Positions 12,682-53,077 of a stretch of DNA of 64,000 nucleotides are shown piece by piece. Below the pieces are notes generated by a model. It made no database searches, was not told where the DNA came from, and was given only the letters and a program-made list of their open reading frames with translations. The translations under genes and the position numbers were made by a program. Source of the stretch: Malacoraja senta (Eukaryota); contig CM075988.1 of the NCBI GenBank assembly GCA_038087875.1, forward strand, positions 22,694,001 through 22,758,000, in the 5' to 3' direction. How positions within the stretch are numbered: position 1 is the stretch's first letter; each line of letters begins with the position of its first letter.

Positions 12682-13531
12682 TTAAACATACTCGCCATAC
12701 CTGTCTGGTGGTCTACTAACACGGCCCGAACGCGTGCGGACCCAACCATCCCCTCCCTCAACTGAAGGATGAGGCGGAGAGGCTGAAGGTGAAAACCGCA
12801 CGGGAGAGGATTGTGGTGACTGAGGGGGGAAACATGCGGTGGGTGAAACCCCGTGGTTAGTGGAGACAGATGGACGTGGGGGAGTGCCAGGCATGCGGGG
12901 ACGGGCGGGAGACATTGCGGAAGGCGGCTGGAACTGGAGCGGCGGAGCATATGGATCGGCAGGCGGCGGTCGGGGCTCCTTCACAGCAAGCAGGTGTTGA
13001 CGACTTCTCCGGTAAACCGCTCCCTCACAGTCCACAAGGTACGATCGCGACTCATCAGTCGGGCGCACAACTACGACCAGACGAGAATGACCAGTTGGAG
13101 TTCGTAGACGGACGACCTGGCCCGGCAGTAGAGGCTGGAGTGGTCTGCTGGAACTGTCGTATGACCGTTTCTGGGTATCGTGCTTCTCTTGGAGACGTTG
13201 CTGGATAGTGGCGGGCTTCAACACCCGAAGAACCAGCTGCTGTTGTGCGATGGGGACCGGAGACCTCGTCACCCTTGACAGCAGCCGCTGTGCTGGTGAC
13301 CCCAAGATTCCGTCTCTTGCAATGTTTCTGAGATTCAGTAGATCGAGATAGACGTCAGACTTTGAAATGCGCGCTCCCTCCAGCAAGTGCTTGGCGCTTC
13401 TGACAGCGCGTTCAACGAGTCCATTACTCTGTGGATACTCGGGACTGCTTGTGACATGCTGGAAGTTCCATCGGTCGGCGAAAAGCTTGAACAAGTGGCT
13501 GGTGAACTGTGGACCATTGTCGGTTCTCAGA
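12682..13531 (-). pseudogene. Truncated Gypsy integrase (second D and E of DDE plus C-terminal domain), uninterrupted frame
   Basis: LRTDNGPQF..HVTSSPEYPQSNGLVERAV..SPAQRL..YRRSRQHL..RTRSGRVSRPPDRY. The zinc finger and first D are absent. Confidence 0.9.
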
Positions 13532-13582
13532 ATAATGGCTGATAATTCTCAGAAAACCGTTATACAAGAGGAGTGGGTAGGA

Positions 13583-20624: not shown

Positions 20625-22695
20625 ATTTATTATTTTTTATTTTTTAAATTTTTTTATTTATTAGAAGTACATTACATTACAACCACATACATTAGTACTC
20701 GTCACTTATGTCTTCTTACAATTAATGTACTCCATTTGTTTTTTACACTAGTAAAAGGAAAGGATAAGATTGAAAGAAAGAAGAAAATGAAGGAAAAAGT
20801 GAGAGTGTAGAAAATGTGACAACAAAAAAGGACGAAGACCCTATAAGAACAAAATTAAAAACAAACAAAAAAGAGTTAAGAAATAGACCCTAGAAAAGAA
20901 GGAGAAAGAGAAAGAGGAAAAAGAGAGAAACAAATATTTTTTATGAGCATTACGCAAATAGGACATACCAACTCTTCAACTATCATCCCCCATTACCTGA
21001 CCTCAATTTTTTTAAGGTACCTTTGCACCCTATATTTGTAATAATTCTATAAATGCAGACCACGTCAGGTGGAAGTGATCTGGTTTACCTGCTAGGAGGA
21101 GTCTTATCTCTTCTAGGTGTAATGTTTAGAACATATTTGAAATCCACGTTTATAGTTGGTATTGGAGCCTTCTTCCAAAATTTTAGGATTAGCTTTTTTC
21201 CAGTTATTAACCCATAGTCTATTAGTTTCTTTTGAAACACATTTAGTTCTGGACCATCTTCCGTTATTCCGAAGATAATCCATTCTGCTTTGGGTATCAG
21301 TTTTATTTTAAATAATTTTGTAAAGATTTCAAAAATTTCATTCCAAGATTTTTGAATTTTTGTACAGAAAACAAATGAGTGCGCTATAGTAGCTTCTTGG
21401 GATTGACATTTATCACAAATAGATGATACATTTGGGAAAATGTTATGGATTTTAGTTTTGGAATAATATAATCTATGTAAAATTTTAAATTGTATTAAAG
21501 TGTGTCTTACATTAATCGAACATTTATGCACGTTTAATAAGTGTTCATTCCAACTTTCCTTTGAAATTTTAATAGTTAACTCTTGTTCCCAGTCTCTTCT
21601 GATACCCTCCGTAGATGGTATTTCTACATTTAAGATAATATTATACAAATATGATATTAAGTTTGATGATTCAGCTTTTATCTGCATTGCCTCATCCAAT
21701 ACATCTGCTGGGTTATTATAATGATCTTTTGTATCTTTTTTCAAATAGTCGCATATTTGAAAATATTTAAAATATTGATTATTTCCGAGTTTATATTTTA
21801 TTTGTAATTGTTGAAATGAAAGTAATTTTCCAGTTTCATACAAGTCACCGAACGTTTTAATTCCTAGTCTATCCCAATGTGTAAAAGCTTTATCTATAAT
21901 AGAGGAATTAAACGAAGGGTTATTAACTATGGGTAATAAAAGTGATAAATTTCTTAATTTTAAATTTTGTTTTATTTGTTTCCAAATTCGGATTGTGCTA
22001 TGAATAATTGGGTTCTTATTATAATTTATATTATTCAGTTTCATTGGAGAGAGGAGGATCGCTCCAATGTTTCCAGAGGAGCAATCCTATTTCTCCATTA
22101 CAATCGAGTCCACTTGCTGGGCGGAGTTATCCATCAGTTGAATCATATTTTTAATATTTACTGACCAATAATAATACATAAAATTAGGTAGTGCTAAACC
22201 CCCTAATACTTTAGATTTATTCAGATGAGTTTTTTGTATTCTATGTGATTTATAGTCCCATATAAAATTAGTGATATCTGAGTCGAGTTTTAAAAAAAAC
22301 TTCTTTGGTAAGTATATAGGAATCGATTGAAATAGGTATAAAATTTGTGGTAGAAAGATCATTTTTATTGCATTTATTCGGCCTATTAAAGACATCGGGA
22401 GCGTTTTCTAGAATTTAATTAGTGTGTTTAATTTATTAAGTAGGGGATCAAAATTTGCCTTAAACATACCTTGATATGTTCTAGTAATTTCGATTCCCAA
22501 GTATTTAAATTTTTCTGTAGCTATTTTAAAAGGGAATTTTAAAAGATGTGTTGAATCTTTCGGTTTTATTGACATAATTTCACTTTTATTCCAATTTATT
22601 CTATATCCAGAAAAAGATCCAAAGTCTTCAATTAAATTTAATATATTTGGTATAGTGATTTGAGGTTTTGTAATGTACAGTAATATATCATCCGC
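20625..22695 (-). mobile_element. 5'-truncated L1 LINE (ORF2 from YADD to the CCHC knuckle, 3' UTR, A-rich tail)
   Basis: Minus strand shows (Y)ADDILLY, SGYRINWNKS, FKYLGI, GGLALPNF, QFKILHRLY and CDKC..HSFVFC. A-rich tail at 20625-20660; several frameshifts. Confidence 0.92.
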
Positions 22696-28400: not shown

Positions 28401-29408
28401 ATGAAGCCCAAGGAACACACCAAACAGGTCAGGGATAAAGTTGTGGAGAAGTTTAAAGCAGGGTTAGGTTATAAAAAAATATCCCAAGCTTTGAACATCT
28501 CACGGAGCACTGTTCAATCCATCATCCGAAAATGGAAAGAGTATGGCACAACTGCAAACCTACCAAGACATGGCCGTCCACCTAAACTGACAGGCCGGGC
28601 AAGGAGAGCATTGATCAGAGAAGCAGCCAAGAGGCCCATGGTAACTCTGGAGGAGCTGCAGAGATCCACAGCTCAGGTGGGAGAATCTGGACAACTATTA
28701 GTCGTGCACTCCACAAATCGGGCCTTTATGGAAGAGTGGCAAGAAGAAAGCCATTGTTGAAAAAAAGCCATAAGAAGTCCCGTTTGCAGTTTGCCACAAG
28801 CCATGTGGGGGACACAGCAAACATGTGGAGGAAGGTGCTCTGGTCAGATGAGACCAAAATTGAAGTTTTTGGCCTAAATGCAAAACACTATGTGTGGCGG
28901 AAACCTAACACTGCACATCACCCTGAACACACCATCCCCACTGTGAAACATGGTGGTGGCAGCATCATGCTGTGGGGATACTTTTCTCCAGCAGGGACAG
29001 GGAAGCTGGTCAGAGTTGAAGGGAAGATGGATGCAGCCAAATACAGGGCAATCTTGGAAGAAAACCTGTTAGAGTTTGCAAAAGACTTGAGACTGGGGTG
29101 GAGGTTCACCTTCCAGCAGGACAACAACCCTAAACATACAGCCAGAGCTACAATGGAATGGTTTAGATCAAAGCATATTCATGTGTTAGAATGGCCAAAG
29201 TCCAGACGTAAATCCAATTGAGAATCTCTGCCAAGACTTGAAAATTGCTGTTCACAGACGCTCTCCATCCAATCTGACTGAGCTTGAGCTATTTTGCAAA
29301 GAAGAATGGGCAAAAATTTCAGTCTCTAGATGTGCAAAGCTGCTGGAGACATACCCCAAAAGACTTGCAGCTGTAATTGCAGCGAAAGGTGGTTCTACAA
29401 AGTATTGA
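28401..29408 (+). pseudogene. Tc1 transposase, frameshifted
   Basis: [32 protein letters not shown] and NPIE motifs across three frames. Confidence 0.93.
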
Positions 29409-37529: not shown

Positions 37530-39043
37530 TTGTATTGTATTGTATATCTTTATTGTCATTTCCTGAGTATTCGCATACCCAGAGGAAACAAAAAAACGTT
37601 CCTCAACCAGTGTCCATTCCAGTGTGCAGTAAAAAATAAATAGAAGCGAAAATACATATATCATGAACAAATTAACACTCTACTAAACATCAACAGGCGT
37701 TCCGATCGGCAGCGGCACGACAGTGGCTCTGCTGCAGTGTGTCCAGGTTGGTGGTTGGTGCACGATACTTTGGCAGGGGACAAAGTCCGTTTATCAGTCT
37801 TATAACCTGCGGGAAGAAGCTGAGGAGCATCCTGCTGGTTTTGCACCTAATGCTCCGGTACCTCTTCCCAGATGGCAGGATGGAGAATATGTGATGCGAT
37901 GGGTGGTAGGGGTCTTTGATGATGGAGATGGCTCTGCTGATACATCTCTTCCTGTATATGTCCAGCAGGAAAGGGAGTGGAGCACCAATAATCCTGCTGG
38001 CGGTCTTCACAATCCTGTCTAGTTGGTGCCGTTCGTACGCCTTGCAGCTCCCGAACCAGGAAGTGATGCCGTAGGTTAATGTGCTCTCGATTGTCCCCCT
38101 ATAAAAAGTTCGTAGGTGTGTAGTGGGGAGACCTGCTTTACGTAGTCTTCGGAGAGGGTGTAGTCGCTGCTGGGCTCTCTTGACCAGTGCTGTGGTGTTG
38201 GTCGTGGACGTCAGGTCATCTGACAGGTGGAGTCCTAGGAACTTCACGCTGTTGACCCTTTCCACATCAGCTCCATCGATGTGCAGAGGTGTATAGTGTT
38301 GTTTTCCCGCCCTCCTGAAGTCAACCACCATCTCCTTAGTTTTTCCCACATTGAGAATGAGGTTGTGGGATTTGCACCATCCTGTGAGCAGCTCCACCTC
38401 CATCCTGTACGCCGACTCATCATTGTCACTGATGAGACCCACCACTGTTGTGTCATCAGCGAACTTGTTGATGAAGTTGTTGTTGAGTCTAGCAGTACAG
38501 TCGTGTGTTAGCAGACTAAACAGCAGGGGGCTTAGGACACAGCCTTGGGGCGAGCCAGTGCTCACGGCTATGGTTTTTGATGTCCTACTGCCCACCCTGA
38601 CTGTCTGCTGCCGTTGCGATAGAAAGTTCAGGACCCAGTTACATGTGCCAGCATCAACCCCCAATAGCTCCAACTTCTCCACCAGCTGCTGCGGAATGAT
38701 TGTATTAAAAGCAGAGCTGAAGTCTATGAAGAGGATCCTGGCATAAGTATTTTTCCGATCAAGGTGTGACAGTACGAGGTTCAGTGTTGTTGAGACTGCG
38801 TCCTCTGTGGATCGGTTGGCTCTGTAGGCGAACTGCAGTGGGTCTAGGTCAGCAGGTAGACTATTTTTGATATGCTGCATAACCAGTCGCTCAAAACACT
38901 TCATTACTATGGGTGTTAGAGCCACTGGTCGAAAGTCATTATGGCAGGCTGGGTTTGGTTTCTTCGGGACAGGGACGATGGTGGCACTCTTAAGACAGTT
39001 GGGCACTACTGCCTGGCTGAGTGAGATGTTAAAAATGTCTGTG
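37530..39043 (-). mobile_element. 5'-truncated Rex1/Babar-type LINE, young
   Basis: Long intact RT ORF, then a 3' UTR with AATAAA and a (TACAA)n tail. Confidence 0.92.
37690..39042 (-). CDS. LINE reverse transcriptase ORF, uninterrupted but N-terminally truncated (no endonuclease)
   Basis: About 450 codons with [45 protein letters not shown] and KFLG. Confidence 0.85.
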
Positions 39044-39114
39044 ATTCCAAAATAGTAGTCTTTGCAGTATTGAATTTGATCAGCAGTATGTATTTGTAAT
39101 TGTTAATGCCTAAC

Positions 39115-41376: not shown

Positions 41377-43001
41377 CAGTGAGTGCACTCCATAATATTT
41401 GGGACAAAGATCCATCATTTATTTATTTGCCTCTGTACTCCACAATTTGAGATTTGTAATAGAAAAAATCACACGTGGTTGAAGTGCACATTGTCAGATT
41501 TTATCAAAGGGTATTTTTATACATTTTGCTTTCACCATGTAGAAATTACAGCTGTGTTTATACATAGTCCCCCCCCATTTCAGGGCATCATAATGTTTGG
41601 GACACATGGCTTCACAGGTGTTTGTAATTGCTCAGGTGTGTTTAAATGCCTCCTTAATGCAGGTTTCAGAGAGCTCTCAGCACCTAGTCTTTCCTCCAGT
41701 CTTTCCATCACCTTTGGAAACTTTTATTGCTGTTTATCAACATGAGGACCAAAGTTGTGTCAATGAAAGTCAAAGAAGCCATTATGAGACTGAGAAACAA
41801 GAATAAAACTGTTAGAGACATCAGCCAAACCTTAGATTTACCAAAATCAACGGTTTGGAACATCATTAAGAAGAAAGAGAGCACTGGTGAGCTTGTTAGT
41901 CGCAAAGGGACTGGCATGCCAAGGAAGACCTCCACAACTGATGACAGAAGAATTCTCTCTTTAATAAAGAAAAATCCCCAAACACCTGGCCGACAGATTA
42001 GAAACACACTTCAGGACTCAGATGTGCATTTGTCAATGACCACTGTCCGCAGAAGACTTCATGAACAGAAATACAGAGGCTGCACTGCAAGATGCAAACT
42101 ACTGGTTAGCCGCAAAAATAGGATGACCACATTACAGTTTGCCAAGAAGTACTTAAAAGAGCGACCACAGCTCTGGAAAAAGATCTTGTAGACAGATGAG
42201 ACGAAGATGAACTTACATCAGAGTGATGGCAAGAGCAAAGTATGGAGGAGAGAAGGAACTGCCCAAGATCCAAAGCATACCACCTCATCTGTGAAACATG
42301 GTGGTGGGGGTATTATGGTCTGGGCATGTATGACTGCTGAAGGTACTGGCTCACTTATCTTCATTGATGATACAACTGCTGATGGTGGTAGCATAATGAA
42401 TTCTGAAGTGTATAGACACATCCTATCTGCTCAAGTTCAAACAAATGCTTCAAAACTCATTGGCCAGCGGTTCATTCTGCAGCAAGACAATGATCCAAAA
42501 CATACTGCTAAAGCAACAAAGGAGTTTTTCAAAGCTAAAAAATGGTAAATTCTTGAGTAGCCAAGTCAATCACCCGATCTGAACCCAATTGAGCATGTCT
42601 TTTATATGCTGAAGAGAAGACTGAAGGGTACTAGCCCCCAAGCATAAGCTAAAGATGGCTGCAATACAGGCCTGGCAGAGCATCACCAGAGAAGACACTC
42701 GGCAACTGGTGATGTCCATGAATCGCAGACTTCAAGCAGTCATTGCATGCAAAGGATATGCAACAAAATACTAAACACAACTACTTCCATTTACATGACA
42801 TTGCTGTGTCCCAAACATTACGATGCCCTGAAAAGGGGGGACAAAAACCCCTAAAATGTATAAAAATGGCCTTTATTAAAATCTGACAACGTGCGCTTTA
42901 ACCACATGTGATTTATTTTCTATTACAAATCTCAAATTGTGGAGTACAGAGGCAAATAAGTAAATGACGGGTCTTTGTCCCAAACATTATGGAGGGCACT
43001 G
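41377..43001 (+). mobile_element. Full-length Tc1 transposon (IR/DR type), defective
   Basis: TA|CAGTG(AGTG)CACTCCATAAT...ATTATGGAGGGCACTG with IRs of about 200 bp containing inner CATAATGTTTGGGACA repeats. Confidence 0.93.
41742..42774 (+). pseudogene. Tc1 transposase with in-frame stops
   Basis: KSTVWNIIKK, TDETK, VKHGGGGIMVW, LQQDNDPKH and SPDLNPIE; stops at about 42189, 42546 and 42558. Confidence 0.92.
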
Positions 43002-47939: not shown

Positions 47940-48425
47940 CTAAAGTACAGAGATTAGTGGACTCTGCCCGGTCCATCACCGGTAGTGTGAATCTGGTAGT
48001 GTGGGAATTCAGGCGTCTGTACCTCCTGCCTGATTGTAGCCGTGAGAAGAGGGCATGCATCAGATGGATATAGCCACTTTGAGGCGTTGCCTCATGCAGA
48101 TGCTTTTGATGGTAGGGAGGGCTGTGCCCATGATGGACTGGGGAGAGTCCACCAATCTCTGCAGTCTGTGTTTCCTGTACATTACCGTTACCGACACGAT
48201 GCAACCAGTCAGGATACTATTCATAGTACGTTGGAGAACTTTATTAGACATGCCAAATCTCTTTAAACTTCTAAGAAAGAAGAGGTGCTTGCAGGCCTTC
48301 ATCATGACATCTACCTGCTGAGCCTAGAACTGATCATATGAGATGTTAACTTCCAAGAATTTGAAACTGCTAACTGTACCACTGACCCACCAATGAAACT
48401 TGTGCATGGTATCCCGATCTTCTCT
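47940..48425 (-). mobile_element. Degenerate Rex/Babar LINE fragment
   Basis: HLFFLRSLKRFGMS and FSRLQSGRRYRRL. Confidence 0.75.
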
Positions 48426-48432
48426 TTCTGTT

Positions 48433-48652
48433 CATAGAAAAATAGGTGCAGGAGTAAGCCATTCGGCCCTTCGAGCCAGCACCGCTGATCATGGCTGATA
48501 ATCTAAAATCAGTACCCCGCTCCTGCTTTTAACCCATATCCCTTGACCCCTTTAGCCCTAAGAGCTAAATCTAACTCTTGAAAACATCCAGTGAATTGAC
48601 CTCCGCTGCCTTCTGTGGCAGAGAATTCCACAGATTCACAACTCTCTGGGTG
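48433..48652 (-). mobile_element. CR1 LINE 3' end
   Basis: Near copy of 19304-19532. Confidence 0.88.
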
Positions 48653-48769
48653 ATATTTGTATATTTTAGCCTTATGTTCCTGGCGCTGTGATTTTGCAGA
48701 GTCGTAGAGTTTCTGACGGATAGTTGCCGCTTTTTATCTCTGTTCTGAAAACGAGCAACGTAATAAGTT

Positions 48770-48774
48770 AAAAA
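48770..48774 (-). terminator. Pol III T5 terminator of the tRNA gene
   Basis: TTTTT 2 nt downstream of the discriminator base on the minus strand. Confidence 0.7.
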
Positions 48775-48776
48775 TG

Positions 48777-48865
48777 AGGCTCGTCATGGGATTTGAACCC
48801 AGGACCTCTCGCATTTTTGCTATTTTAATCCCAAAACGCGAATCATACCCCTAGACCAACGAGCC
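48777..48865 (-). tRNA. tRNA-Pro(TGG) gene or pseudogene with a 16-nt intron-like insertion (48814-48829)
   Basis: GGCTCGTTGGTCTAGGGGTATGATTCGCGTTT-TGG-G [ATTAAAATAGCAAAAA] TGCGAGAGGTCCTGGGTTCAAATCCCATGACGAGCCT. The body matches vertebrate tRNA-Pro, with a perfect acceptor stem, intact A and B boxes and no encoded CCA. Confidence 0.88.
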
Positions 48866-51516: not shown

Positions 51517-53077
51517 ACATTTTGTTACGTTACAGCCTTATTCTAAAATGGATTAAATTCATTTTTTTCATCATCAATCTATACACAATACCCCATAATA
51601 AAAAAGCGAAAACAGGCGTTTAGAAATTTTTGCAAAGTAATTAAAAGAAATAACTGAAATATCACATTTACATAAGTATTCAGACCCTTTGCTATGACAC
51701 TCAAAATTGAGCTTCGGTGCATCCTGTTTCCATTGATTATCCTTGAGATGTTTCTACAACTTGATTGGAGTCCACAAGTGGTAAATTTAATTGATTGTAC
51801 ATTTTGGAAAGGCACACACCTGTCTATATAAGGTCCCGCAGTTGACAGTGCATGTCAGAGCAAAAACCAAGCCATGAAGACGATGGAATTGGCCGTAGAC
51901 CTACCCCTGAGACAGGATTGTGTCGAGACACAGATCCGGGGAAGGGTATAAAACAATTTCTGCAGCATTGCAGGTCCCGAAGAGCACAGTGGCCTCCGTC
52001 ATTCTTAAATGGAAAAACTTTGAAACCAACAGGACTCTTCATCGAGCTGGCTGCCCGGCCAAACTGAGCAATCGGGAGAGAAGGGCCTTGGTCAGGGAGG
52101 TGACCAAGAACCCGATGGTCACTCTGACAGAGCTCCAGAGTTCCTCTGTGGAGATGGGAGAAACTTCCAGAAGGACAACTATATCTGCAACACTCCACCA
52201 ATCAGGCCTTTATGGTAGAATGGCCAGACAGAAGCCACTCCTCAGTAAAAGGCACATGACAGCCCGCTTAGAGTTTGCCGAAAGGAACCTAAACACGATT
52301 CTCTGGTCTGATGAAGCCAAGATTGAACTCTTTGCCTGAATGCCAAGTGTCACGTCTGTAGGAAACCAGGCATCGCTCATCACCTGGCCAATACCATACC
52401 TACGGTGAAGCATGGTGGTGGCAGCATCATGCTGTGGGAATGTTTTTCAGCGGCAGTAACTGGGAGACTAGTCAGGATCGAGGGAAAGATGAACAGAGCA
52501 AAGTACAGAGAGATCCTTGATGAAAACCTGCTCCAGCGCGATCAGGACCTCAGACTGGGCCAAAGGTTCACCTTCCAACAGGACAACGAACCTAAGCACA
52601 CTGCCAAGACAACGCAGGAGTGACTTCGTGACAAGTCTGTGAATGTCCTTGAGTAGCCCGGACTTGAACCCGATCGAATATCTCTGGATGGATCTGAAAA
52701 TAGCTGTGTATCGACGCTCCTCATCCACCCTGACAGAGCTTGAGAGGATCTGCAGAGAAAAATGGGAGAAATTACCCATATACAAGTGTGCCAAGCTTGT
52801 AGAGTCATACCCAAGAAGACTCGAGGCTGAAATTGCTGCCAAAGGTGCCTCAACAAAGTACAGAGTAAAGGGGCTGAATATGTAAATGTGGTATTTCTGT
52901 TATTTATTTTTAATTACTTTGCAAAAATTTCTGAACACCTGTTTTCACTTTTTTTAATTATGGGGTATTGTGTATAGATTGATGATAAAAAAAGAATTTA
53001 ATCCATTTTAGAATAAGGCTGTAATGTAACAAAATGTGGAAAAAGTGAAGGGGTCTGAATACTTTCTGAATGCACTG
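51517..53077 (+). mobile_element. Tc1 transposon (third family), outer left IR deleted, decayed transposase at about 51874-52870
   Basis: Right end TACTTTCTGAATGCACTG|TA; inverted arms at 51517-51690 and 52870-53040; [25 protein letters not shown] and SPDLNPIE. Confidence 0.92.

Follow-up and report, generated by a model that had tools for sequence, protein, structure and literature searches.

The 64,000 nucleotides of DNA analysed here (the window) contain a tRNA-Pro(TGG)-like gene with a short insert between positions 37 and 38. Comparison with the rest of the genome suggests, on balance, that this locus is a relic of a small and old family of intron-bearing tRNA-Pro(UGG) genes, the members of which have one homologous short insert at 37/38. 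Most likely, the transcript of the ancestral gene would have been spliced by the tRNA splicing endonuclease; the gene would then have been duplicated to give a family, of which we found seven loci, and its members would have decayed. We infer past splicing from the insert at 37/38 in every copy, from a U32-antepenultimate-A pair and 4-bp helix in three of the four full-length copies and from a switch at position 34. The window copy today is probably no longer a working tRNA gene, i.e. it would be either silent or of no use, because it has a G.A mismatch, a U.G pair, a favoured shifted helix that hides the splice-site bulges, an extra T-stem base and a rate of change like that of its flank. It may nevertheless still be transcribed, since it keeps its boxes and terminator. 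A dead family would fit the evidence better than a working, spliced tRNA-Pro family.

The window copy and its surroundings

When introns were allowed, ARAGORN reported a tRNA-Pro(tgg) at c[48776,48865], which was the sole call of the default intron run across the 64 kb; run without the intron option (as for bacteria), it made no calls in the window. A BLAST comparison of the window sequence with the intact 72-nt Pro-TGG genes of the same genome gave an E value of 7e-13, and the likeness is therefore homology and not chance. The features of the locus, together with those of its surroundings and the other members of the family, are listed in Table 1. ARAGORN also offers an alternative parse, in which the intron has 14 nt and the register of the anticodon stem is shifted by one.

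Table 1. Positions of the window features and of the seven insert-bearing loci; positions without a contig name are those of the window.
Feature	Position	Strand	Remarks
tRNA-Pro(TGG)-like gene	48777-48865	-	reads 48865 to 48777
5' exon, tRNA positions 1-37	48830..48865	-	34/36 bases match intact Pro-TGG gene
Presumed A box	48858-48848	-	
Anticodon TGG	48833-48831	-	inside 5' exon
Insert (intron), 16 nt, ATTAAAATAGCAAAAA	48814..48829	-	G37/T38 junction, from alignment to intronless copies
3' exon, tRNA positions 38-73	48777..48813	-	33 matches, 3 substitutions and 1 inserted base relative to intact gene
Presumed B box	48799-48789	-	
TTTTT run, Pol III terminator-like	48770..48774	-	two bases past discriminator, from reading of the sequence
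High-copy interspersed repeat	48436-48653		just past the tRNA terminator
Long ORF	12682-13548		
Long ORF	21085-22086		
Long ORF	28586-29221		
Long ORF	37690-39102		
Long ORF	41688-42191		
Long ORF	51911-52339		
Family locus 1 (window copy)	C12		TGG; full-length
Family locus 2 (C2)	C2:77150530		TGG; full-length
Family locus 3 (C9a)	C9:9473181		anticodon AGG; full-length
Family locus 4 (C9b)	C9:9472113		GGG, very decayed; full-length
Family locus 5	C17:5075449		halves about 430 bp apart, (TTAGGG)n-like and other sequence between
Family locus 6	C1:45902708		tandem pair with locus 7; breaks off in SINE past intron
Family locus 7	C1:45909940		tandem pair with locus 6; breaks off in SINE past intron

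Aligned with the intact gene, the exons of the window copy have five substitutions and one inserted base. The changes in the 5' exon are T28>G, which gives a G28.A42 mismatch, and C31>T, which gives a U.G pair; those in the 3' exon are C50>T with G64>A and C73>T, the last of which leaves T and not C as the discriminator. The inserted base is an extra T on the 3' side of the T stem. The acceptor stem is a perfect 7 bp, and the stretches that we take to be the A and B boxes are letter-identical to those of the genome's intact Pro genes. An earlier, sequence-only reading of this DNA had placed a 16-nt insertion exactly at 37/38 of a tRNA-Pro(TGG), and the alignment to intact Pro genes, with the junction at G37/T38, confirms this. 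The same reading had described intact A and B boxes, a T5 terminator (TTTTT at 48774-48770) and the absence of an encoded CCA, and had noted a G:A mismatch in the anticodon stem and one extra base in the T stem; all of these are present as it described them.

The translations of the long ORFs in the window, as judged by eye, look like fragments of integrase, reverse transcriptase and Tc1/mariner-type transposase, with no obvious host gene among them. The repeat just past the terminator is of very high copy number: its contig depth sums to millions in four runs with four organism labels, two of the runs being guessed to be RNA, and it has dispersed matches close to the paralogs. The contigs of runs X20 and X21, both guessed to be RNA, are confined to this repeat, at roughly 48402-48673. 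The flanking SINEs may be of a cartilaginous-fish type. As in the window, where the copy is solitary, no tRNA gene was called by ARAGORN in 10 kb taken from one side of each of four paralogs (4 x 10 kb). A search of metagenomes with a pattern for the 5' exon and intron start gave a single match (L099), which is not a tRNA and was set aside as chance.

An insert-bearing tRNA-Pro family

We searched the assembly (1.94 Gb in 6,182 contigs) with two patterns, one for the 5' half and one for the 3' half of the gene, and the resulting whole-genome counts are lower bounds, so that an intact intron-bearing copy could be missed or could lie outside the assembled sequence. With at most two mismatches the 5'-half pattern gave 29 rows, as against three for the reversed control; nine of these were insert-bearing, 18 were intronless Pro-like genes or pseudogenes and two were chance matches. 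The nine insert-bearing rows, all with Pro-like bodies and with A or G after G37, represent seven distinct loci plus two rows on a duplicate contig, C1743. The 3'-half pattern gave 49 rows (one for the control), and none of the 49 was a further insert-bearing copy; nor was a new one found when a covariance model, R1, was run on the window and 54 loci. Four of the seven loci are full-length, one is split by telomere-like repeats and two are cut by a SINE. The two C9 copies lie 1 kb from each other in opposite orientations.

In all four full-length copies, alignment to the intronless Pro genes places the insert between G37 and T38, and the 5' boundary of the insert is identical in the three broken copies. 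The upstream context is TTNGGG, and the downstream context, wherever a 3' exon remains, is TGCGAG or TGCAAG. The inserts are AT-rich, start with ATTAAAA, ATTTAAA, ATCTATC, ATGTAAA, ATTTGAT or GTAAAAA and have a common core, ..AAG(C/T)..; these alike starts and the common core point to a single origin. In a MAFFT alignment the first ~10 intron bases are roughly as alike between copies as the exons are. An apparent contrast between exon identity (80-85%) and intron identity (18-59%) was rejected as weak, since it depends on naive global alignment, applied to strings that are short and AT-rich, and MAFFT disagrees with it. Outside the ~100-bp tRNA body the loci have only dispersed repeats in common, and their trailers differ from copy to copy. 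Intact intronless 72-nt Pro-TGG genes are also present in this genome, e.g. three within 1 kb on contig C4, and the intron-bearing Pro genes are therefore not needed.

Several further observations concern the make-up of these loci. Contig C1743 repeats the truncated pair of C1 and contig C2675 repeats the three-gene cluster of C4, each with the same flanks; both contigs are probably haplotigs or assembly duplicates, in which case raw gene counts are inflated. In the C17 copy (L021/L053, C17:5074984-5075477) the 5' half has the family intron start and differs from the intact gene by six mismatches and a gap, and the 3' half has one mismatch to the intact gene and keeps 4/4 of its CpGs. The two halves look to be of unequal age, with gene conversion or a chimeric join as candidate explanations. 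L089 (C8:54121169), a lone Pro 3' half that follows transposon-like sequence, shares the GAGGTGCC variant with the C17 copy and may be another broken member of the family. L054 and L055 (C1:60526418 and C1:60640413) are near-identical sequences 114 kb apart, in which a Gly(GCC)-like 5' part is fused to a perfect Pro 3' half; this chimeric tRNA-like sequence is not called by ARAGORN.

Splicing-type pairing, damage and change

tRNA introns are defined (PMC10275265) as lying between N37 and N38, with intron bases complementary to N33-N35 and with C32 or U32 paired to an antepenultimate A or G of the intron. The window copy has each of these features. Its anticodon-intron (A-I) helix consists of U32:A (the antepenultimate base), U33:A, U34:A and G35:C, and is followed by a 3-nt 3' bulge made up of the last two intron bases and T38. 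What it lacks is an undamaged mature domain, by which the endonuclease measures, given G28.A42, the extra T in the T stem and a score of 21.6 bits against the Rfam tRNA model. In C9a the helix is formed by U32:A, U33:A, A34:U and G35.U plus two further pairs, and the unsupervised MAFFT alignment puts C9b in a register with this same helix. The C2 copy is without the A-I pair, so that three of the four full-length copies keep both the pair and the 4-bp helix; pairing in the helix between anticodon and intron (helix 4) amounts to 93.8% over the four copies. Opposite position 34 the intron has an A if the anticodon begins with T and a T if it begins with A or G (the AGG and GGG copies). This switch is a single covarying event, does not result from a CpG effect, and carries some weight but not much: an A-rich insert beside a U-rich loop pairs easily by chance, and the weight that we give to the covariation and to the A-I helix is therefore limited.

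Covariation was also seen in the cloverleaf stems, where six pairs are changed on both sides, a number reached by at most 10 of 500 shuffles. We rejected this as a sign of selection, because five of the six are CpG/CpG pairs, for which three of the four possible results of neutral two-strand deamination are standard pairs.

Every family copy is structurally damaged. The 21.6 bits of the window copy (local E 0.063) compare with a gathering threshold of 29, so that a search of the window at gathering level gave no match, and with 30.5 bits for the C2 copy and 56.7 bits for intact Pro genes; for loci L016 and L034, which contain the C9 copies, there was no Rfam tRNA match at E<=1. A cloverleaf with the A-I helix has a predicted energy of -17.0 kcal/mol, which is 12.3 kcal/mol above the minimum (-29.3 kcal/mol, not a cloverleaf), and, if the mature domain is enforced, a helix without bulges and in a shifted register, CGCGUUUU with AAAAUGCG, reaches -24.1 kcal/mol. 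The splice-competent fold of the window copy is therefore 7-12 kcal/mol worse than the alternatives; the cloverleaf of an intact Pro gene lies just 2.1 kcal/mol over its own minimum. The window copy keeps 4/6 of the CpGs of the intact gene by our reading of the alignment, which is above what would be expected of long-methylated dead DNA.

The window locus could be compared with its counterpart in run X2, which has another organism label and a contig on 48788-49300 with 14 substitutions. Differences fall at 3/62 exon sites, 1/16 intron sites and 8-10/435 flank sites; the substitutions were placed by depth bookkeeping, 78 tRNA bases are covered and the numbers are small. All three exon differences are in the 5' exon. 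When the intact gene serves as outgroup, C31>T falls in the window lineage and G19>T and C29>G in the X2 lineage, i.e. the window copy's own lineage has had one mild exon change since the split. The odds ratio for change in exon relative to flank is 2.2-2.7, so that the exons are not slower, and at least three exon changes would have a probability of p 0.0004 under tenfold constraint. Judged by these substitutions, the window locus shows no purifying selection on its exons between the two organisms. A second contig, bearing intron bases specific to the C2 copy, was seen in both runs, including X2; with the window locus and a C2-like copy both in X2 contigs, at least two members of the family predate the split of the two organisms.

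These results bear on two proposals of the sequence-only reading, that this lineage may have an intron-containing tRNA-Pro family and that the window copy may be decaying. The second is upheld by the low Rfam score, the damaged stems and exons that change no more slowly than the flank. The first stands at the level of DNA, where the genome-wide look for further Pro loci with a 37/38 insert that the reading had called for gives, by the pattern censuses, seven distinct loci with a homologous insert; a family of maintained genes is less likely, with damage in every copy and an ortholog comparison that reveals no constraint.

Origin of the family and comparison with known tRNA introns

A fuller history can be proposed tentatively, with slightly less than an even chance of being right. 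In it a TSEN-spliced intron was gained in a tRNA-Pro gene, the gene diversified into UGG and AGG forms with co-adaptation of anticodon and intron, and the family died as intronless Pro genes took over. The main rival, which we regard as rather unlikely, is that the family was dead on arrival: a short AT-rich segment became inserted into the anticodon loop of a Pro gene or pseudogene and was never spliced, and the dead copy was duplicated, both the 37/38 position and the A-I pairing being coincidence. Damage in every copy is what this rival would predict, and the cheapness of pairing between a UUU-rich loop and an A-rich insert, the lack of the A-I pair in C2 and the explanation of five of the six double-sided stem changes by neutral decay at CpG/CpG pairs all agree with it. 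It has more difficulty with the exact 37/38 position, which is one of about 72 possible sites, with the retention of the A-I pair in three of the four full-length copies and with the switch between A34:U and U34:A, which owes nothing to CpG decay; the inverted C9 pair, 1 kb apart, moreover resembles the intact gene cluster of C4.

At the other extreme, the window copy might be a functional tRNA-Pro(UGG) gene that is transcribed by Pol III, spliced by TSEN, ligated by RtcB and decodes CCN. Its A- and B-box stretches, T5 terminator, canonical intron position, A-I helix and full 7-bp acceptor stem would all suit such a gene, as would the retention of 4/6 CpGs and the single mild exon change on its own lineage. 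We nevertheless consider it improbable, given the G28.A42 mismatch and extra T-stem base, a score of 21.6 as against 56.7 bits, a splice-competent fold 12.3 kcal/mol above the minimum, exons no slower than the flank between two organisms and surroundings rich in transposons, where it is the one tRNA gene called in 64 kb (ARAGORN default). Least probable of all, and very much so, is that the locus heads a tRNA-derived SINE, or that an unspliced pre-tRNA was copied back into the genome. tRNA-related SINEs abound in this genome and lie beside several of the copies, and a retrocopy of a pre-tRNA would keep the intron and be without CCA; however, the likeness between copies ends at the ~100-bp tRNA body, a T5 run comes straight after the acceptor, neither an A tail nor, within 80 nt on either side, a direct repeat of at least 6 nt is present, and only seven loci were found, with trailers that differ between them.

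Animals differ very little in which tRNA families carry introns, and the gain of a tRNA intron is seldom observed. A Pro family with one common 37/38 intron and with splicing-type pairing that tracks the anticodon would record how such an intron arises, spreads by duplication and is lost. If the gain of a TSEN-spliced intron and the later death of the family are true, these loci would document how a tRNA intron family was born and died in a presumed vertebrate, and related species might still harbour intact members that are spliced. The window copy itself is presumably a relic, for which no present role is evident; the value of the locus would be evolutionary.

In its anatomy, the window intron is an ordinary eukaryotic 37/38 intron. 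The available text of PMC10275265 gives Tyr-GUA, Ile-UAU, Arg-UCU and Leu-CAA as the human intron-bearing families, and Pro is not in that list. The family described here resembles the vertebrate families of that text in its short N37/N38 intron, in a bulge-helix-loop with a pair between C32 or U32 and the antepenultimate purine, in the variation of intron sequence among members and in the coexistence of intronless members, as in human Arg-UCU and Leu-CAA (PMC10275265). It differs from them in its isotype, Pro, and in that all of the members found are damaged. The literature searched, which did not extend to subscription journals, GtRNAdb or preprint supplements, yielded no account of a vertebrate tRNA-Pro gene with an intron. 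A genome-wide tRNAscan-SE study reports many intron-bearing tRNA loci in some fish lineages, sharks and rays among them, in a text that, in the part available, is without isotypes (bioRxiv 10.1101/2025.06.08.657570); the family here may be part of this pattern, if the genome belongs to that group. Copies with this much damage would probably fall below the 50-bit cut-off of the preprint (bioRxiv 10.1101/2025.06.08.657570).

The same isoacceptor has an intron at the same position in Saccharomyces cerevisiae, where all 10 tRNA-Pro(UGG) genes carry one, according to the available text of PMC4090602. The yeast genes are functional and belong to a distant lineage, so that the yeast and window introns, which we compared by position and not by sequence, are almost certainly independent. 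Like the vertebrate tRNA pseudogenes and tRNA-derived repeats described in PMC8450103, the window copy scores low against the covariance model, has broken stems, stands alone among repeats and changes in a way that looks neutral. Unlike ordinary tRNA pseudogenes, it has a homologous 37/38 insert with splicing-type pairing that is common to seven loci.
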